Virus record (IMG/VR): IMGVR_UViG_3300025135_000008
Span: 1-50,288 of that record
Reading direction: 5' to 3' (one strand)
Length of the DNA: 50,288 nucleotides
Source of the DNA: a virus
Lineage: Duplodnaviria; Caudoviricetes
Shown here piece after piece: positions 16,431-41,163 of this stretch (the stretch's first letter is position 1; each line of letters starts with the position of its first letter). The position numbers were made by a program, and so were the translations under genes. The notes beneath the pieces are model-generated. The model searched no databases and was not told the origin of the DNA. It saw nothing but the letters and a program-made list of their open reading frames with translations.

Positions 16431-17504
16431 TTAATAATCCCAGCGGACGCGAGGGCGGCCAGCGCGAATGCCAAGATGCACGAAGCCCTTTGGCGCACCG
16501 TAGCCAACGCTAAAAGGCCATTCACGGTCGCACCAGTCTTGCACCTCTTTGATACTGGTGTCTTTGATGTAAAAATCAACAGCACCTACGCTGGGTGCGT
16601 TGTACAGGTGCTCGCTACCGCTTGCGCCGCCCACTGAGCGATTGATCGATGCGGGCCTGTAACCGCTTGTAATAACTACGGGCTTGTGACCAAAGCGAAC
16701 TCGCGCACGCTCAAGGAACGCAGCCAATTCAGCAGCAGTGTTGACTTGATACTGATGATGAAAGCGACGAGCTTCTTGATTTAGCGCAAACTCACCAATG
16801 GTAATGTGGGGCGTAATGCGCGAAGTAAATGGCGCGTTAGGGTTCAGTTTGGCGACATCTTGCTGCACCGTTGGCAGCCCCTTGGCCCACAAATTGCCTT
16901 CAGCCTCTCTGCGCCTACGAAGGCCCTCTTCAAAGCTGCTGCCGGGATTGCGGTACAGCATCATCGCTTCCGGCACACGGCGCCAGTCTTTATCGCGCAG
17001 CCGTGCGGTGATCGTCTCGAAGCCTTTGGCACCGTAGAAGCCAGCGCCAAGGTTATAGGCGAACGACACCAGCGCCGACCGTTGGTTGTCGCTCATCTCA
17101 CGCCAATGCGGCACATCCTGCGCCAGCTTGACGGCGATGCGATCTACCTCCTGGCGTAGCATCATATCCGCTTCAACCCGGTTGATTTTGTTACCTTGCT
17201 TAACGGGCCTGCCATCGGCATAGCGAGTGTTGCCCCAGCCAATCGTCCACACGCCAGCAGGGCATTTGTAAGCGTCAAGATGACAGCCTTCAAATTGCTG
17301 AATCAGCTTGATTGCTTCGCCCAGGTCCTGCTGCTTACCGTCTTGGCTCCAAGTTTGAAACCATGGCCGGTCACGACGCATTGCAGCGGTATAGCCATTG
17401 GCAGCAAGGTCATATTCCAGCAATTGGATGCTGGCAGCTTGATGCGGAAGACCCTTGTAATAGCGAAACAAGGCTTCAAGGGTAATTGGTGCGGTGTTAG
17501 TCAC
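16431..17504 (-). CDS. endolysin: GH24 lysozyme + peptidase M15 domains
   Basis: FEGCHLDAYKCPAGVWTIGWG...SFAYNLG...GLRRRREAE (GH24); ITSGYR..N..VGGA..SEHL...AVDF...FVHL (M15A). Start GTG 17504 or ATG 17519. Confidence 0.9.
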   Translation of the reverse strand: MTNTAPITLEALFRYYKGLPHQAASIQLLEYDLAANGYTAAMRRDRPWFQTWSQDGKQQDLGEAIKLIQQFEGCHLDAYKCPAGVWTIGWGNTRYADGRPVKQGNKINRVEADMMLRQEVDRIAVKLAQDVPHWREMSDNQRSALVSFAYNLGAGFYGAKGFETITARLRDKDWRRVPEAMMLYRNPGSSFEEGLRRRREAEGNLWAKGLPTVQQDVAKLNPNAPFTSRITPHITIGEFALNQEARRFHHQYQVNTAAELAAFLERARVRFGHKPVVITSGYRPASINRSVGGASGSEHLYNAPSVGAVDFYIKDTSIKEVQDWCDREWPFSVGYGAPKGFVHLGIRAGRPRVRWDY

Positions 17505-17748
17505 GACGCCACGGCGCATGGATGGATATTGGACCGCCTAGCAGCTGGCTGTCTCCGGTTTGTAGCTCTGTGTCGATGGCGTGCTCAACCACCACTGGCG
17601 GCGGCGCATCAGGCGGCTGCGCTGCGTGCCAGTCAGCTTCAGCACGGTCCAGCTTGGCCGGTAGCGTTAGTTCAAACCACCACTGACGGATGGCTTGCTC
17701 TAGGCGACGTTGCCAACCTGGCTTGCCGAAGCTGATCAGCGCTTTTTT
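17497..17748 (-). CDS. start-less ORF, predicted -1 frameshift extension of the holin-like gene
   Basis: KALISFGKPGWQRRLEQAIRQWWFELTLPAKLDRAEADWHAAQPP...LLGGPISIHAPWRRD*; in-frame TAA just upstream, no ATG, entered at A_AAA_AAG. Confidence 0.65.
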   Translation of the reverse strand, partial: KKALISFGKPGWQRRLEQAIRQWWFELTLPAKLDRAEADWHAAQPPDAPPPVVVEHAIDTELQTGDSQLLGGPISIHAPWRRD

Positions 17749-17876
17749 GTTTTAATCGCATTCAAGGCGTGCAGGACAATTTGAATAATGCTGTTGTCTC
17801 TCAGTGGTGACATGCCGATCAGCTCGGAAGCTGCTGCAATGATGATCCAAAAAGCAGGGTGGTGAAGGAAGTCCAT
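17736..17876 (-). CDS. holin-like small membrane protein, 46 aa
   Basis: MDFLHHPAFWIIIAAASELIGMSPLRDNSIIQIVLHALNAIKTKKR*: hydrophobic N-terminal half, basic tail, just upstream of the endolysin. Not in the ORF track. Confidence 0.65.
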   Translation of the reverse strand: MDFLHHPAFWIIIAAASELIGMSPLRDNSIIQIVLHALNAIKTKKR

Positions 17877-18127
17877 CAGCGAGGTAGTGGGCGTGCCTCC
17901 AGTTTAGTCACACGTTGCTCAACGCCATTAAGCCTTGCGTAGGTTTCTTTGCGGTCGTCTTTGATGTCGGCGTGCATGACCTCTAGCTGAACGGCAATGT
18001 GTTCTACGGCAGAAGTAAGGCGGATGACAGCATCGCGAGCTTCATCGCTGCGGCGACTAAAGCCCATGGCTCCCATCGCGGCAACTGAAATGCTGGCGCC
18101 AGCAACGGCTGCTAAAACTTCAACCAT
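17876..18127 (-). CDS. membrane-anchored coiled-coil protein (lysis module)
   Basis: N-terminal hydrophobic segment plus heptad-rich C-terminus; TGATG-coupled to the holin-like gene. Confidence 0.6.
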   Translation of the reverse strand: MVEVLAAVAGASISVAAMGAMGFSRRSDEARDAVIRLTSAVEHIAVQLEVMHADIKDDRKETYARLNGVEQRVTKLEARPLPR

Positions 18128-18151: not shown

Positions 18152-18286
18152 TTAGCGGCCCTGCCCTCTACGAAGCTTGCGTGTGCCGCGTGGTTTGCTG
18201 CGTTTGCTGTTGCCTTGACGGGTAAGTTTTGGTTTAGCGGGCTGATGCTGAATAGCGCCAGTGCCAGTTTTGCTGCGAACGGCCAT
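18152..18286 (-). CDS. small basic protein ending RGQGR, 44 aa
   Basis: Manual translation MAVRSKTGTGAIQHQPAKPKLTRQGNSKRSKPRGTRKLRRGQGR*; resembles a cyanophage small-protein family (recollection). Confidence 0.6.
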   Translation of the reverse strand: MAVRSKTGTGAIQHQPAKPKLTRQGNSKRSKPRGTRKLRRGQGR

Positions 18287-34539: not shown

Positions 34540-35003
34540 TGCAACGTAAGAGTGCCCGTGACAGGCAATGAGCCGACCAATTCTTGAGAAAGTACGCGCC
34601 CGCCACCATTGCGCACAGCATCCAGGGGTGAGGCAAGTTGCAAGCGGACCACAGGCTCGCTGCTGTCATGCTGCACTTGCTGTGTCGCCCAATACTCTGA
34701 TTGCAGCAAAGGACCAAGGCTTAAATCACTGCGATTGACCAGCACAGTCTTCACTTCCAGCAGCCAGTCCTCTTCGACTGCTTCGGTAAAAATGTTAAGC
34801 GTCAAAGCACTCATCGGGGCGCCTAACACGGCTTCGCTTCGGTCGCCGCCTGCGCTAGATGCATTTGTTGCAACTGCAACTGGCGCGTAAGGATAAAATC
34901 CACCTTCGTAATCAATTGACTGGCCGACATAAAAATTCTGAGCAAGCCAAGGCGTAAAAAGACCATTGCGTCGCTTAAACCGAAGAAAGTTACAGAGTTC
35001 CAT
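34536..35003 (-). CDS. minor tail protein (gpL-like)
   Basis: Follows the tape measure gene; LQLASPLDAV...LVGSLP. Confidence 0.55.
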   Translation of the reverse strand: MELCNFLRFKRRNGLFTPWLAQNFYVGQSIDYEGGFYPYAPVAVATNASSAGGDRSEAVLGAPMSALTLNIFTEAVEEDWLLEVKTVLVNRSDLSLGPLLQSEYWATQQVQHDSSEPVVRLQLASPLDAVRNGGGRVLSQELVGSLPVTGTLTLQ

Positions 35004-38000
35004 TAGGCCAGACCCACGGCACGACGAGCACTTGGATTGTTACGCAAGCGTTTTTGCGCCAGTTCTGCACCACGCGATGCTGCAACTTGTCCAATCTTTT
35101 CAGCCTCTTGTCGCGTAACAAATTCCATGCCATTGATGACTACGGTTTCAAATCGAATCAAGCCATCGCCCGCCATGCTTGCGCTGCCAGTTTCACTTGC
35201 GTTCATCGCCTGGAATGGCACCGTCAAGGCAGAAGTGGCAGCCTGGAATGGCACGTTGCCGCCTTCTTGAGTGGCCGTCGGCTGTGCACCATTGGCAAAT
35301 GGCACGCGCAAAGCTTGGCGCGTAGCTGCTGCAGCAGCAAGCACTTCTGTAGGAACAATTTGCCCAGCTTGGGTCGGAACAAACAACTCAGGGCCGCGTT
35401 CACCAACCAGCGAGGCGCGGCCTACGGGCGGGCGGCCACCGTTGGCGAAGCCTGGCATTGCCGACAAACCTTGGACAATTGCGTTTCCTGCTGCTCCTCC
35501 GCCTGCGCCTCCCCCTGCGCCCGCAGCATCACCCCCTGGGAACAGCTTAACGATTTGATTTAGGAGTGCTAGCCTGATCCACTGCGCAATCATTTTGGCG
35601 GCCATGTCAGCAAAATAATCAGCAAGACTTGAGAAGAAGTTGCGAAGTGCTTCTTTGGCGCTCATGCTACCTGTGATCAAGCCCTTGAACGAGTCTGCAA
35701 ACGCATCACCAATAGCGCCTGCAGCGCTAATAAGTTGATTGACAGGATCAACAAGTTGATCTAAAACTTCTCGCGTTTCCTTGATCGCCTCTTTGACCCG
35801 CTCAAAGTTAGTAGGGTCCGGCGGATCATACAATTCTCTTGCGGCCTCTATAGCCGAAACGCTATCACCACGCAACTGCGCGAGTCGTTCTTCAATTTCT
35901 AAAATTCTTTCTTGAAGGTTGAGCTTTGTCTGCAAATCTTGCGTTAACTCTTGTTGCTGCTGCAGGCTGATCAACTCCCTAGTTAATCCTTGGCCTGAAA
36001 TTTCTACGGCTCTTTCAATCAGATATAGCTGTTCGGCTAGCTGGGGATTGATCCCGTTTTCCATAAATTCTTTAATGCGCCTTTGCTGCCGCACTTGATT
36101 CATGTAGCCAACATTCAAGTCGTCGATTGCCTTAGTTGCATTTTCAATGTTTTGCTTAAAAGCTTGGTTGAGTTCAAATTCAGTCTGAGCGCGTGTCTGC
36201 TCAAGACGCAAGCGAAGTGCTGCAATTTTTAATGCAGTTTCTTCTTGCGGAATCTCTTCAATTTGCGCAAGGCTAATTTGACTGCGGATTTGCAGTAGTT
36301 GTTCTTCACCGCGAAGTCGAATTTGCAGCAAGTTATTGCCTGCGTCTTGTGCATCTCTAATGCGATCCTGAATGCCGCTGAGCTGTTTTTGCAGCTCAAG
36401 CGCAATCATCAATTGCGGCACTTGGCTGGCGCGACCGGCTTTATCTGCGCCTGCTCCGGCGCCTGCAGGGTCGTCAGCGGATGGGAAACGCGCATCAGTC
36501 CTGCCAGGGCCAGTGCCGACCCTGCCAAGCTCCCGCCCAATTATTTTTTGACGTTCTTTCGTAAGATTTAAAGCGCTTTCCGCTGCTTTCAATTCCTCCT
36601 TGGCCGCTCCAAGTTGAATTATTTCACCGGCCCTGTCCCCGGACATAGAACCAGGCGCTGGAAGGGTAAATCTGCCACCAGCGACAGCAGCACTGGCTGC
36701 GCCAAGCTCGCCAACTTCTTTCCTTAAGTCCTCGACTCGTTTTTTGTTTTTAATTATTTCTTCGCCAACATCCTCCATCTGTTGAATTAAAATTGGCCTG
36801 CGTTCTTCGGGAGTGCTAGCTCCACGCATTGCATTGCGAAAATTAACTTCAAGATCATTCGAGTCTCGCTGTATTTCCTCTATTTCATCTCTGGCCGCTC
36901 GCACACGGGCCAAGTCACTGAGCACTTTTGCTACGCCAACAACAGCTACTGTCAATATCAACGGAGCTGCCCATGCCGTTGCAAGTGCAAGAGTCGCAAG
37001 CTTTAGTTTCGTAAGCGCTCCACTTAGCAAGCCCACCTTGGCAGTAGTACCTGTAATTACTACGCCTCCAGCGGTTTTTGCGGCCATCAAGCCAACAAAT
37101 GCTCCCTGTATTCCAGCAATGGCCGCTTTGGCTATATTCAAGCCAGCAAAAAACAAAGCAATTTTTGCCGTAGTTGGACCTATGGCAATTGTCAGATCAG
37201 CGAGCGACTTGGTTACGGTTGCAAGATTTTTGGCAAACTCAACAATTGCTTCTTCGTTTTCAGTAAAAATGCCAATTATTAACTCTTGGAACTCAGCCCC
37301 CAAGGGCTGCAGCTCGCGGCCTATGTTTTCGCGCAGTCGAGCCATTGTCGTAGCAAGGCGATCTCCCGCGGCTTGACTGCTTGACGCAACTTCTTCTGCC
37401 GTGCTGCCGAAACGCTTAATCAGCGCTTCAGTAAATTTCATGAAATCATTCAGGTCTACCTTGCCCTGAGCAAGCATCTTGTCCAGCTCAGGCGTTGTAG
37501 TCCCGATGGCCTGTGCAAACAAATTGAACGCACCAGGCAGTCGGTCGCCAATCTGCCGTCTCAATTCTTCAGCGCTTACCTTGCCCTTGCCAAAGACCTG
37601 AGAAGTAGCCAGCAACGCGCCCTGCAAGTCTTGCAGCGATCCGCCAGTACCCCTGATGCCAGCCGCAATGCCCAAGAACGCACGCTCGGCTGCGTCTACA
37701 TTGCCGCCAGCACCGATAACGCTGGCCGAAAGCTGAGTAAATTGCTTGGTTAAAATGTCTTGCGGAATCGAAAGGCGACGGCTTGTGTTTTCAATGATCT
37801 GCAGTGAGCGATCATATTCAGCAGTTGACCCAACTACGTTCCGCAACGCAATTCGCTGCTTGTCAATTTCAGCGGTAAATTCCGCCATCTCGCCAAGCGA
37901 TTTGCGGATGTTGCCAAGCTGTGCGCCAATAGCCGCACCAGCAAACGCGCCAGGCACCCCGCCAGCTATTGTGCCCGCAACGCCACCAATGGCGCCTTCA

Positions 38001-39238
38001 GGGCCGCCAAAGATGCCGCCACTGATAACAGCGCCAGCAGCCTGTGTCGCGCCCATTGCGCCCATTGGCTTGCGCTGACGGCTTTGGAAACGATCCAACC
38101 GACGTTCAACATTGGCAATCTCTTTTGTGACATCACGAAAGCTTTTGCTGGTTGGGTCAAGCTGATTCCTTAGCGTTTGCCATGCAGATCGCTGACGCTG
38201 CAAACTAGAAATACTGTTATTTGATGCGCCAGTAGCACGCCGAATATCGTCAGCTACTTGCGTGTAGCTGCGACCCATCATTTCAATCTCTCGCGTGACA
38301 TTGGACATGCCAATATCAGTAATGGTCTGGAATAGACCGCTAATGGGCCGCATAGGCCGCTCAATAGTTGGCGCCACCGCGCCACGTGCACGCCCGCGTT
38401 CAATAGAACGACGAATTGCAGCCTGTTCGCGAATTTTTTCGTTTTCTTGCCTTATCGCTTTAAGGTTTTCAATACGCAGCCTGATCTCATCCTTCTGGCT
38501 TCTTCCTGTATCGGCAGTTGCTTCTGCAAGTTCTTTTTGCAGCCGCGACAATTCTTTTGCGGTTTCACCGTAAGCGGTGCTTTCCCGGTCAAGGTTTTGG
38601 AAGTCTTGAGAAAGCTCTGCAATTTTTTGACGCAATGCTGCCAGCGTATTTGGCAGTTCTTGCTGTGGCGTCATTGCGCCAATTAACGGTGCGCCAACTG
38701 CCTGAGCACCGGCAATAACTCGCTGCCGTGACTGAGCGCGACCAAATGCAATTTCGCGAATAGTAATTTCGGTTAGTGCATCGCCGTATGCGCGTGCGCT
38801 AACGCTAAGTTGATTGAGTTGACGATTTAAAGCAGCAAGTTGAATCCTGAACGCTTCTGGCTTGCGAGCGGGGAACTGAGCCGCAATTTGCTTGTCAGTT
38901 TGCTGCGCAGCTCTTCCAACCCCTTCGTAATCTTTTTTTAGAGCCTTAAGCTGATCACTTAAAGCATTAACATCGCCAGCTAATTGCCTGTAAACGTTTC
39001 CGCCAATTGTTGCTTGCGACTGCAGACCCTTGAAGGCATCAATCTGCCCTTGGATCATTTGAATGCTTTGCTTACCTGAGTTAGCAAACTCAAGCACCTC
39101 ATTACGTGCGCTAGCAATCGCCTTATCGGTCGGCCCCAGGGCCTTTTGCAGGTTACGGAAGGACGAGCTGAGCTTGTCGAGGCCCTCCATGCCCTCGATG
39201 CCAAGCTTGACCAGCAGTTCTTCAATCTGCTTTGCCAC
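35003..39238 (-). CDS. tail tape measure protein
   Basis: 1411 aa, helical; QVFGKGKVSAEELRRQIGDRLPGA tape-measure motif; C-terminal FANGG..VGERGPELF. Confidence 0.92.
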   Translation of the reverse strand: MAKQIEELLVKLGIEGMEGLDKLSSSFRNLQKALGPTDKAIASARNEVLEFANSGKQSIQMIQGQIDAFKGLQSQATIGGNVYRQLAGDVNALSDQLKALKKDYEGVGRAAQQTDKQIAAQFPARKPEAFRIQLAALNRQLNQLSVSARAYGDALTEITIREIAFGRAQSRQRVIAGAQAVGAPLIGAMTPQQELPNTLAALRQKIAELSQDFQNLDRESTAYGETAKELSRLQKELAEATADTGRSQKDEIRLRIENLKAIRQENEKIREQAAIRRSIERGRARGAVAPTIERPMRPISGLFQTITDIGMSNVTREIEMMGRSYTQVADDIRRATGASNNSISSLQRQRSAWQTLRNQLDPTSKSFRDVTKEIANVERRLDRFQSRQRKPMGAMGATQAAGAVISGGIFGGPEGAIGGVAGTIAGGVPGAFAGAAIGAQLGNIRKSLGEMAEFTAEIDKQRIALRNVVGSTAEYDRSLQIIENTSRRLSIPQDILTKQFTQLSASVIGAGGNVDAAERAFLGIAAGIRGTGGSLQDLQGALLATSQVFGKGKVSAEELRRQIGDRLPGAFNLFAQAIGTTTPELDKMLAQGKVDLNDFMKFTEALIKRFGSTAEEVASSSQAAGDRLATTMARLRENIGRELQPLGAEFQELIIGIFTENEEAIVEFAKNLATVTKSLADLTIAIGPTTAKIALFFAGLNIAKAAIAGIQGAFVGLMAAKTAGGVVITGTTAKVGLLSGALTKLKLATLALATAWAAPLILTVAVVGVAKVLSDLARVRAARDEIEEIQRDSNDLEVNFRNAMRGASTPEERRPILIQQMEDVGEEIIKNKKRVEDLRKEVGELGAASAAVAGGRFTLPAPGSMSGDRAGEIIQLGAAKEELKAAESALNLTKERQKIIGRELGRVGTGPGRTDARFPSADDPAGAGAGADKAGRASQVPQLMIALELQKQLSGIQDRIRDAQDAGNNLLQIRLRGEEQLLQIRSQISLAQIEEIPQEETALKIAALRLRLEQTRAQTEFELNQAFKQNIENATKAIDDLNVGYMNQVRQQRRIKEFMENGINPQLAEQLYLIERAVEISGQGLTRELISLQQQQELTQDLQTKLNLQERILEIEERLAQLRGDSVSAIEAARELYDPPDPTNFERVKEAIKETREVLDQLVDPVNQLISAAGAIGDAFADSFKGLITGSMSAKEALRNFFSSLADYFADMAAKMIAQWIRLALLNQIVKLFPGGDAAGAGGGAGGGAAGNAIVQGLSAMPGFANGGRPPVGRASLVGERGPELFVPTQAGQIVPTEVLAAAAATRQALRVPFANGAQPTATQEGGNVPFQAATSALTVPFQAMNASETGSASMAGDGLIRFETVVINGMEFVTRQEAEKIGQVAASRGAELAQKRLRNNPSARRAVGLA

Positions 39239-39590
39239 TCTCGCCTCGCTGCTTGTTGATTTCGCTCAGCGCCGCCGCTTCCATCACTTGGATGTCCTCT
39301 AGCATGGCGCGTTTATCTTTCACATCATAAACGTCTAGCAGCCCCCCGGCACCCAGCAGCACCTCGTATTTCAAGCCGACATAGCCGCCCATTGTTACAG
39401 TCCATTGCGTTTGCATCCGCAAGAACATCAACACCGACTCCCAATTCTCTTCCCAGATGGCAAACTCATTGACTTCTGGCTTGGGCTGCTTTGGCATTGT
39501 GATACCAAAAGCAGCCGCGTCATCAGCCGTTTTGTCCTCAACTTGCTGCGCTCCACCCGCCCAGTAGATCGCAGCGCCTTTTAGTTTCCC
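39222..39590 (-). CDS. tail assembly chaperone, frameshifted C-terminal part (gpT-like)
   Basis: The -1 frame from G_GGA_AAC reads KLKGAAIYWAGG...MPKQPKPEVNEFAIWEENW..FLRMQTQW..GLKY...IQVMEAAAL. Confidence 0.75.
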   Translation of the reverse strand, partial: GKLKGAAIYWAGGAQQVEDKTADDAAAFGITMPKQPKPEVNEFAIWEENWESVLMFLRMQTQWTVTMGGYVGLKYEVLLGAGGLLDVYDVKDKRAMLEDIQVMEAAALSEINKQRGESGKAD

Positions 39591-39907
39591 TCCCGTGCTC
39601 CATCAAACGTTTCGGTGTAAGCCTTCAACACACCGCGAATCCAATACGGATCGTCTGCAAATTCTTTCATCATTGCATTGGAAAAAGGCACGGCGTTGCC
39701 CTCTTCGTCTGTAATGCCATCCCAGCCTGCCAAAACTGACTGCAACAGCTCAAGCTCGCCTTTTTCTGCAAGCTTGGCAAATTCCTTTCGGCCCAAGCGC
39801 TTGAACTGAGCATCAAATACGCTGGCTTCAAACGTACCGCCGTCTGCTGGCTCCTCAACGGTGACGGGCCATTTGAACGTCTTAACCTTTTTACGAACAA
39901 ATGCCAT
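39581..39907 (-). CDS. tail assembly chaperone (gpG-like)
   Basis: MAFVRKK...FKWPVTV..GWDGITDEEG..VPFS; between tube and tape measure; ends at a slippery site. Confidence 0.8.
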   Translation of the reverse strand: MAFVRKKVKTFKWPVTVEEPADGGTFEASVFDAQFKRLGRKEFAKLAEKGELELLQSVLAGWDGITDEEGNAVPFSNAMMKEFADDPYWIRGVLKAYTETFDGAREGN

Positions 39908-39954
39908 AACTGAATGGTTGCGCTGGTAACTTTGTGCAGCATAACCCAAAAACG

Positions 39955-39977
39955 AAAAAACCGCCCACTGGGGGCGG
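39955..39977 (-). terminator. rho-independent terminator after the major tail gene
   Basis: CCGCCC-CCAGT-GGGCGG followed by TTTTTT on the - strand. Confidence 0.7.
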
Positions 39978-39999
39978 CAGTGCGATGGCGAAATGCAAC

Positions 40000-41163
40000 T
40001 CAGGCAAAGACCAGCTTAAATTCGTCATTGCCGACAGTGCTTGGCACAGCAGTAAAAGGAACCGACAGCATGTGGATGCCGTCTTGATCTTCGTAGCTGG
40101 GGTCGCCAATGTCCACGCGGGTGGAATACAGCGATACCAAGTTGCCAGCGGCATTGCCATGGATAAACGACAGGTCGCCCAGCGTTCCGTCAGACAGGGC
40201 TGCCGTGAAGTAGTCCTTGTCAGCAATCGTTGGAGCTTCAATTACGCTAGTACCGGTGGTGGCACGATCAGTAATCAGTACCTGCTTGGCACAGGAAATC
40301 AACTCGCGATAAATAATTGAGTTGCCCACGTCCAGGCTTACCGATTGCATACAACCGGTGTAGCTCAGCAGGCTGAACGCACCAGTGTTGCCGTTTTTAA
40401 AGATCAGCGGGGTTGCCTGATCTGCATAAGTGACAGCAGGAGCGGCAGTGTCAGTTGGCGGATTGTAAATCCCGGTCATCGTAAAATCAATCGTGGGAAT
40501 TTCGCCCACATTCCCATTGAGCGTAAACGTGCCACGGCAACCCGTCAGCCGGTGCAGCACTCCATCAATGTTGTAGTGGATGGTGACAGAGCTGAAAGCA
40601 GCGCTGACCGGAGTGTAGATCGTTTGAAGGCCAATGCTGTAAGCACTGGTGGCGTCAAACGTGGTGCTACCAGCAAGCGGACGCAAGGTCGCAACCTTGG
40701 TAGAGCCGACATAGGCAGTAATCAAAGCGATGGCGCCGCTGCCCAGGCCACCAGTGATGCGAATGATCTGGCCTACATAAAAACCGTCAACGGCGCTAGC
40801 AGTCCCTTCCAAGGTAATGCTGTTGGCTCCACCAGCAGTTGCGGTGCCGGTCACGGCAGGGGTGATGCCAGTCTCTGCAAGCCCGCAAGCCTTCAGAACT
40901 GAGCTGTAGCGCGGAGCGGTGCCAGCGGTGCCAGAACCGGCCATCTCTACGCTGAAAGTGCATTCAACGCGAGTATTAGCAAGGAGTTGCTCTGAGGCGC
41001 CCAAATATGGACGAATCAAGTCGCGGCTAACAACATCACTCTGCAGCGGAGTGATGCTTAGATCGCGAACCAAAATTGCATCAGCAGCGCCAGGGCTCGG
41101 GTCAGTCCCGTACTGGGCTTCCGTCTCCGCCAAAATCAGGCGTTTGCGTGTCAGAAGTGGCAT
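40000..41163 (-). CDS. major tail tube protein
   Basis: E..YGTDP, RDLIRPYLG, FSVEMAGSGTAGTAP, GCRGTFTL..GEIP..FTMTG; followed by a terminator and the chaperones. Confidence 0.85.
   Translation of the reverse strand: MPLLTRKRLILAETEAQYGTDPSPGAADAILVRDLSITPLQSDVVSRDLIRPYLGASEQLLANTRVECTFSVEMAGSGTAGTAPRYSSVLKACGLAETGITPAVTGTATAGGANSITLEGTASAVDGFYVGQIIRITGGLGSGAIALITAYVGSTKVATLRPLAGSTTFDATSAYSIGLQTIYTPVSAAFSSVTIHYNIDGVLHRLTGCRGTFTLNGNVGEIPTIDFTMTGIYNPPTDTAAPAVTYADQATPLIFKNGNTGAFSLLSYTGCMQSVSLDVGNSIIYRELISCAKQVLITDRATTGTSVIEAPTIADKDYFTAALSDGTLGDLSFIHGNAAGNLVSLYSTRVDIGDPSYEDQDGIHMLSVPFTAVPSTVGNDEFKLVFA

Follow-up and report, generated by a model that had tools for sequence, protein, structure and literature searches.

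Does the small membrane-protein gene beside the endolysin gene of the tailed virus IMGVR_UViG_3300025135_000008 specify one protein or two? In this record, whose whole 50,288 bases make up the window analysed here (all coordinates are in window numbering), a 46-codon open reading frame (ORF) on the minus strand (17876..17736) opens at a single ATG and runs into the slippery heptamer A_AAA_AAG (17748..17742, minus strand), past which the -1 frame remains open as far as the start of the endolysin gene. An earlier reading of the DNA (the original prediction) had proposed that a phased -1 shift at the heptamer yields two products, of 46 and 126 residues, with a common membrane N-terminus. Conservation of the site among relatives, exchange of one slippery heptamer for another and a switch of coding frame at the site strongly support this proposal, and on such comparative grounds it is highly probable that cyanosiphoviruses like Synechococcus phage S-CBS3 have a programmed -1 ribosomal frameshift, conserved among them, in their lysis cassette.

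The layout from which the proposal started is confirmed by the minus-strand reading. The 46-codon ORF ends in ACA (17750-17748), AAA (17747-17745), AAG (17744-17742), CGC (17741-17739) and TGA (17738-17736), with the heptamer, the proposed site of a tandem -1 slip, in X_XXY_YYZ phase and the zero-frame stop TGA (17738..17736, minus strand) one codon past it. The claim that the -1 frame is closed just before the heptamer, lacks ATG and stays open to 17497, overlapping the endolysin start, also holds. A TAA (17754..17752, minus strand) lies one codon before the heptamer, which shuts the -1 ORF of the window genome off from any upstream start, and 84 open codons follow it up to TAA 17499..17497. 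Counted from the heptamer, the -1 coding part (17497..17748, minus strand) has 83 codons plus this stop and encodes a predicted soluble domain; the predicted transframe protein (17497..17876, minus strand) would join 45 zero-frame residues to 81 -1-frame residues, giving 126.

In our model, a ribosome on the 46-codon gene would have AAA in its P site and AAG in its A site on reaching A_AAA_AAG. The majority of ribosomes would read one further codon and stop, giving the 46-residue protein, while a fraction would slip one base back with both tRNAs and read 81 more codons, giving a 126-residue protein that keeps the membrane anchor and gains a domain of ~80 residues that is probably cytoplasmic. 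These frameshifted ribosomes would terminate within the endolysin start region. That the shift occurs at the ribosome, that the long form is the minor one and how the two forms lie in the membrane are what we infer.

Conservation of the heptamer and the stop

The heptamer alone does not exceed chance: the window has 7 copies of AAAAAAG, compared with 12.4 +/- 3.4 expected from shuffles (96 of 100 shuffles had at least 7), which is at most a mild shortfall. The significance of the site rests on conservation among relatives. We searched viral contigs (IMG/VR, with 113 relatives of the -1 part) and metagenome contigs with the -1 translation and with divergent and continuous relatives, and obtained 357 loci, including S-CBS3, one contig from a metagenome-assembled genome (MAG) and the window; many contigs were retrieved repeatedly. 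The 344 loci that hold both the membrane part and the downstream domain were collapsed by script to 189 distinct junction sequences, and the remaining 13 of the 357 were all cut by contig ends, the heptamer still being visible in 3. Left out of the counts were S-LBS1, which has unrelated genes in the slot, and 80 lysozyme-only loci, in which the domain is found in 0/80.

The search of relatives that the original prediction had called for, directed at the heptamer and the start-less -1 ORF, found both conserved across the 189 junctions. The downstream domain lies in the -1 frame in every one (189/189), and a canonical heptamer stands at the equivalent place in 186: A_AAA_AAG in 162, C_CCA_AAG in 14, G_GGA_AAG in 9 and A_AAA_AAC in 1. 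The encoded residues differ between heptamer types (KK, PK or GK), and exchange among canonical heptamers at the cost of changed residues is, judged by sequence comparison, what marks a functional frameshift site. Exactly one codon separates the heptamer from the zero-frame stop in 181/189 junctions, and the number is three, two and zero in 5, 2 and 1; the stop is TGA, TAG or TAA in 150, 24 and 15 junctions. Over this stop the -1 frame reads CTG in 142 junctions, TTG in 8 and CTA, TTA, GTA or ATA in 39, and where it reads leucine the codon is never CTC or CTT, though leucine is encoded by such codons elsewhere. The constant distance of the stop from the site and the leucine-codon bias suggest that the stop itself is under selection.

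The first 59 unique junctions of the A_AAA_AAG lineage provide an internal control. Two codons upstream of the site a Lys codon varies (AAA in 42, AAG in 15), both codons of the heptamer are invariant in 59/59, and the base before these codons is A in 58/59, though it is the third base of four-fold GGN, GCN, ACN and GTN codons. The codon between the heptamer and the stop gives Ala or Gly in the -1 frame, compared with L, R, G, V, D or P in the zero frame.

The nearest named relative, S-CBS3, has ~65% DNA identity to the window and the same gene order: an 81-residue membrane/coiled-coil protein, a 46-residue protein, gp22 (55 residues) and the endolysin. Its 46-residue gene ends GGA AAA AAG CTC TAG, with the same heptamer, phase and stop spacing. 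The -1 frame is open across the site, similarity to the window extends well upstream of the annotated ATG of gp22, and the position of that ATG holds no start codon in the window. In-frame deletion variants occur right after the junction (S-CBS3, L068/L069, L071 and L077-L082), and all keep the frame from the heptamer onward.

Some relatives stand apart. The contig from the MAG (L205; 4,978 bases, with the cassette) sits in a Dehalococcoidia genome, was the sole match among 185,579 species genomes and is probably a viral contig binned by mistake. In S-LBS1 (L002, 1742-2402) unrelated genes precede the lysozyme, encoding two small membrane proteins and a 93-residue soluble protein; the last has its own ATG in an ATGA overlap, an analogous layout without a frameshift. 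The module also occurs in an AT-richer phage group (L186, 1322-3246 of an 85-kb contig, and L184, on 44-79 kb contigs), together with a 62-residue membrane protein of PHROG 9685 and a glucosaminidase/C39-type endolysin, and with a coiled-coil protein that has a C-terminal membrane segment between the module and the endolysin. The heptamers of this group are imperfect (C_TCA_AAG, G_TCA_AAG), and L186 has a TTG 12 codons into the -1 ORF, so that this contig may use an own start for the ORF.

Coding frame and start codons

If the downstream domain is read by slipping ribosomes, the frame under selection should be the zero frame before the heptamer and the -1 frame after it. Frame analysis on a 45-sequence alignment gave this pattern. 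The maxima of column entropy fall on zero-frame third positions upstream of the site and on -1-frame third positions downstream. The ratio of nonsynonymous to synonymous substitution rates (dN/dS) upstream is 0.27 in the zero frame and 1.96 in the -1 frame; downstream it is 0.078 in the -1 frame, 0.071 over the first 22 codons after the junction, and 1.2 and 2.2 in the other two sense frames. Codon periodicity and purifying selection thus switch frame at the heptamer. The best antisense frame reaches 0.16 but carries 33 stops in the 45 sequences. A 179-codon antisense ORF lies across the region on the plus strand (17196..17735); since antisense frames over the -1 domain have stops or higher dN/dS in relatives, we regard it as spurious.

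A survey of start codons in 173 unique junctions revealed no conserved start for the -1 ORF. The first ATG, GTG or TTG past the heptamer lies anywhere from codon 3 to codon 79 and is absent in 5/173, and ATG is wholly absent from the -1 ORF in 38/173. In 16/173, the window included, only a single open codon precedes the heptamer in the -1 frame. We also looked among the relatives for homologues with a conserved start of their own and no heptamer, which would have spoken for a separate gene, and found none.

Protein collections hold, in addition, six continuous proteins of 124-131 residues whose single frame covers both membrane part and domain (P0013, P0162, P0163, P0168, P0169 and P0170, on 1+12+1+1+23+2 contigs from three sources), in which the junction is exactly as the slip predicts. 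These forms, like the lysozyme fusions described below, are known from protein records alone, and queries with P0162 and P0104 (one of the fusions) in IMG/VR returned only frameshifted relatives or lysozyme-only loci. The continuous forms may represent a lineage with a fixed long form or gene callers correcting frameshifts, and we give them little weight.

Alternative explanations

Could the downstream ORF instead be a separate gene with its own initiation, by reinitiation at the CTG or TTG over the stop or from an internal GTG, TTG or ATG, the heptamer being incidental? The annotation of S-CBS3 gp22 from an internal ATG, the ATGA overlap of the gene in the equivalent position of S-LBS1 and the many different starts that gene callers assign to the downstream ORF would all agree with this. 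However, internal starts have no conserved place and purifying selection begins at the heptamer itself, and in the ATG-less -1 frame of the window the first GTG (17595) comes only 51 codons in. Reinitiation over the stop encounters the 39/189 junctions with CTA, TTA, GTA or ATA at this position, which are not initiators. Own initiation also leaves unexplained why the heptamer is retained at the nucleotide level and exchanged only for canonical heptamers, and why the codon lying between it and the stop changes conservatively in the -1 frame and not in the zero frame. We consider a separately initiated gene improbable. 

A second way to reach the same proteins would be transcriptional slippage, in which RNA polymerase adds one A on the A6 run and ribosomes read the long form unslipped. 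The commonest site does contain A6, and continuous 131-residue forms with the expected junction would also be expected from RNA-derived assemblies. Yet 23/189 junctions have C_CCA_AAG or G_GGA_AAG, with homopolymers of at most 3, so that polymerase slippage cannot apply to those junctions, and the invariance of the final G and of the phase is relevant to ribosomal and not to polymerase slippage. To our knowledge, six A residues are also fewer than in the runs that slip efficiently in bacteria, and we rate transcriptional slippage as very improbable. Finally, homopolymers are error-prone, and the continuous 124-131-residue versions would fit a 126-residue gene split by a homopolymer sequencing error or by a one-base deletion. 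The same split is however found in 189/189 junctions, from many assemblies and one cultured phage and including non-homopolymer lineages, and the A run is free of indels in the contigs of 4 runs (3 studies); with so many independent assemblies, sequencing error is excluded. A decayed gene is at odds with the strong purifying selection on both parts, and the probability of an artefact or decayed gene is negligible. Ribosomal frameshifting at the heptamer thus stays the explanation that we favor.

Stimulators and efficiency

Several observations weigh against programmed frameshifting and have to be set beside the evidence for it. Three of the 189 junctions have imperfect heptamers (G_AAA_AAG, C_TCA_AAG and G_TCA_AAG), all of which end in A_AAG. 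The CTG or TTG over the stop in 142 and 8 of the 189 junctions creates a CTGA or TTGA geometry like that of ATGA-coupled genes, so that a degree of termination-reinitiation may occur in those junctions. The original prediction had suggested that the 3' sequence be folded in search of a stimulatory structure; folding recovered none that is conserved. RNAalifold on the 45-sequence alignment gave a weak consensus of -13.1 kcal/mol with 1/21 pairs compensatory, and its best hairpin lies ~42 nt downstream, in a stretch missing from the deletion variants. Shuffled sequences fold just as well as the 50 nt past the site (mean z -0.18, 5% below -2, n=189 junctions); the window's own 92 nt reach a folding z of -2.46 with a structure that is not conserved. 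No upstream Shine-Dalgarno-like element is conserved in the 45-sequence alignment. AAGGA was considered as such a stimulator and rejected: it adjoins the site in GGA-type sequences only, is not conserved, and its spacing there is wrong for -1 stimulation. Finally, the slipperiness of A_AAG in E. coli depends on its single tRNA-Lys(UUU), and a tRNA-Lys(CUU), should the hosts have one, would lower slipperiness at AAG. The window itself contains no tRNA genes in its 50,288 bases.

A stimulatory element is common, not obligatory, at -1 frameshift sites. Because no conserved stimulator accompanies the heptamer, the long form is probably a minor product, and by analogy to tail-chaperone sites we infer a low to moderate frameshift efficiency, with the 46-residue form as the major one. 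The fixed ratio between the products that the original prediction assumed is likewise putative.

The proteins and their genomic context

The cassette begins with a gene for an 83-residue protein (17876..18127, minus strand), which is hydrophobic in an N-terminal segment and helical and charged in its C-terminal part. It matches PHROG 26178, of unknown function (E 1.4e-40), and weakly phrog_937, 'hemolysin' (E 0.0077). The TGA of this gene overlaps the ATG of the next (TGATG). Just upstream of the cassette, the minus strand carries a 44-codon ORF (18152-18286) for a very basic peptide with many K and R.

The 46-residue protein has one hydrophobic segment (~residues 7-22; hydropathy maximum 1.87 at residues 8-22), an amphipathic helix and a basic C-terminus, the flank on the C-terminal side having a net charge of +4. 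By the positive-inside rule, this flank would place the C-terminus, and with it the extension, in the cytoplasm. Small size, a transmembrane segment, a charged C-terminus and a position beside the endolysin give the protein the features of a holin-type protein. It has no match to a holin family in Pfam, and its PHROG matches are all of unknown function (PHROG 22542, E 2.9e-26, and likewise PHROG 15106).

The -1 domain matches no Pfam or PHROGs family. A profile search of 1.84 billion representatives gave 102 clusters of very uneven lengths, many of which begin with the membrane gene read out of frame, the result to be expected from starts guessed by gene callers. In agreement with this, the claim that gene callers miss the long product is borne out by public records, which hold only truncated or wrongly started ORFs such as the 55-residue gp22 of S-CBS3. 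The AlphaFold model of the continuous 131-residue relative P0013 (mean predicted local distance difference test score, pLDDT, 81) shows a membrane helix, a second helix, a long helix at 60-93 (pLDDT ~90-97) and a small strand-helix-strand end. Foldseek found no match for this model in the PDB, and the highest Z that VIA-align reached on 48,161 chains was 4.6, for the helical N-terminal part only. In BFVD only two short, unnamed viral proteins, 55 and 78 residues long, matched clearly, and the first of them we take, from its length and 51% identity, to be S-CBS3 gp22; the ESM Atlas returned only unnamed viral clusters, at 0.87.

The most conserved residues lie in the C-terminal part of the -1 domain (Q-T-G-x-S-x-L-L-G-G ... 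A-P-W). One relative, P0131, has the C-terminal motif (hydrophobic-x-hydrophobic-basic-A/S-P-W) three times, and the repeated motif might resemble a short binding motif. The invariant Pro-Trp near the end of the domain (17497-17520 in the window, and in relatives) is often encoded by CCA TGG, which in some lineages includes the ATG of the candidate endolysin start; conservation of Pro-Trp may partly serve this overlapping start.

The endolysin gene (17519..16431, minus strand) starts inside the end of the -1 frame, at ATG 17519 or alternatively GTG 17504, and encodes 362 residues with a GH24-type phage lysozyme domain (PF00959, E 1.6e-28) and a peptidase M15 domain (PF08291, E 6.9e-18) and without a hydrophobic N-terminus. 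This arrangement is widespread among the relatives. Directly downstream of the module, in 146 unique loci with at least 500 nt, lies a lysozyme+M15 endolysin in 128 and a glucosaminidase/C39-type endolysin in 6, a lysozyme match is found elsewhere in 5 and none in 7. Directly upstream, in 165 unique loci with at least 300 nt, lies a homologue of the 83-residue protein in 99 and a differently built coiled-coil membrane protein in 6; a homologue is found elsewhere in 26 and none in 34. In 134/135 unique loci the -1 ORF ends 4 to 32 nt past the candidate endolysin start, and frameshifted ribosomes would therefore terminate on the endolysin start region. In a nine-protein cluster (P0104, P0154-P0161; ~25 contigs) the -1 domain continues in frame into a GH24 lysozyme domain. 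The fused domain stands in place of the usual N-terminal domain (P0104, P0157), and the P0157 model has a low-confidence N-terminus and a lysozyme fold from ~residue 85. Complex prediction for residues 22-83 of the 83-residue protein with the -1 domain gave no support (score 0.00, the mark being 0.32) and speaks neither for nor against their binding.

A role in lysis

What might the two proteins do? By sequence, the context appears to tie the -1 domain to the endolysin more than to anything else. We tentatively suggest, at clearly less than even likelihood, that the long isoform is a lysis regulator which links a membrane component to the endolysin and whose translation is coupled to that of the endolysin. 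A fuller version of this idea, which is possible but rather unlikely to hold in all its parts together, is a translational lysis controller of an undescribed kind. A slippery site would set the ratio of a holin-like protein to a rarer long isoform, the cytoplasmic domain of the latter would hold or regulate the endolysin at the membrane, only frameshifted ribosomes would reach the endolysin start, and sister lineages would have the domain fused to the enzyme itself. Two points weigh against these proposals: the endolysin that accompanies the module can be of either of two unrelated types, making a specific fit to one enzyme less likely, and the domain matches no known family or fold.

After the regulator, the next best guess is a holin/antiholin pair, the role suggested by the original prediction together with a spanin-like one. 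The 46-residue protein would be the holin and the 126-residue form an antiholin or timing partner co-assembling through the shared membrane segment, with frameshift efficiency as the lysis clock, by analogy to the dual-start motif of lambda S105/S107. The small membrane protein has a basic C-terminus and sits beside an endolysin without signal or signal-arrest-release segment, the membrane part is common to both products, and the stop one codon past the site in 181/189 junctions looks as if the end of the short form mattered. Against this stand the missing match to a holin family, the upstream 83-residue membrane protein, which is an equally good holin candidate, and the fusion of the domain to a lysozyme in another lineage, which points to the enzyme and not to a holin. 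With 46 residues and one clear hydrophobic segment, the protein is also shorter than the characterised holins that we know of. We regard this pair as a doubtful, if conceivable, reading. A dual-start holin/antiholin in the strict sense was rejected, the isoforms differing at the C-terminus and only one ATG opening the 46-codon ORF. The spanin-like role is disfavoured: the -1 extension contains no cysteine and hence no lipobox, and its domain follows the +4 flank of a single hydrophobic segment. An i-, o- or u-spanin is accordingly unlikely, the domain being predicted to be cytoplasmic, not periplasmic.

Discussion

The site very probably belongs, by its sequence features, to the class of phage -1 frameshift sites, as a new and widely conserved member in a lysis module. 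E. coli dnaX (tau/gamma) and the IS3-family elements (orfA/orfAB) have -1 sites with A_AAA_AAG at which tandem slippage occurs with AAG in the A site. The site described here has the same heptamer, and in IS3 elements, too, a stop soon ends the zero frame and the extension in the -1 frame has no start. The dnaX and IS3 sites have an upstream Shine-Dalgarno-like element and a downstream hairpin or pseudoknot, whereas none is conserved at the cyanophage site, and they lie in replication and transposition genes, whereas the cyanophage site lies in the membrane-protein gene of a lysis cassette.

A closer parallel within tailed phages is the -1 frameshift of the tail assembly chaperone G/GT, reportedly described by Xu, Hendrix and Duda in 2004. 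There, too, an X_XXY_YYZ heptamer lies near the zero-frame stop, a short major product is accompanied by a C-terminally extended minor one, and usually no strong stimulator is found. The tail sites differ in belonging to tail assembly genes and not to a lysis module, where the shared part is a membrane anchor. The window has a tail-chaperone site of its own: G_GGA_AAC (39590..39584, minus strand) is in phase and followed by a TAA ending at 39581. The upstream ORF (40015..39581, minus strand) ends GAG GGA AAC TAA, and a start-less -1 ORF (39602..39222, minus strand) runs toward the tape-measure ORF (39238..35003).

The lambda proteins S105 and S107 form a holin/antiholin pair made from dual starts. 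Like the proteins proposed here, they are two products of one small membrane gene beside the endolysin, in a ratio set by translation. The lambda isoforms differ at the N-terminus through their starts, whereas a frameshift would set those of the cyanophages apart by 81 residues at the C-terminus, and holin activity is putative here. In MS2, according to the passages available of PMC10885494, which refers to Kastelein et al. 1982, expression of the lysis gene depends on frameshifting in the coat gene. Frameshifted ribosomes are there, too, delivered to the start region of a lysis gene; as that text describes it, the MS2 frameshift product has no role and arises from low-level errors, whereas the -1 product of the cyanophages is conserved under strong purifying selection. 

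The literature that we searched, a set outside which the S-CBS3 genome paper falls, contains no published report of this frameshift site, and no -1 frameshift is on record there for this lysis module. The accessible text of the S-LBS1 paper (PMC6157547) mentions neither a frameshift nor a holin, that of PMC3483164 reports frameshifts in tail genes only, and the portion available of PMC9671017, a genome announcement, gives heuristic frameshift predictions 'near predicted holins' in Streptomyces phages, with no detail.

Recoding sites that are conserved are rare, and behind each stands a protein overlooked by annotation pipelines. The present one lies in the lysis cassette of widespread picocyanobacterial siphoviruses with uncharacterised lysis proteins and offers a testable handle on the timing and organisation of lysis in these phages. 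With its natural series of heptamers (A_AAA_AAG, C_CCA_AAG, G_GGA_AAG and A_AAA_AAC), a fixed stop and no detectable stimulator, the family also provides a comparative set for frameshift efficiency in cyanobacteria. If the lysis-controller reading is true, endolysin output would be tied to the same frameshift event that makes the long isoform.

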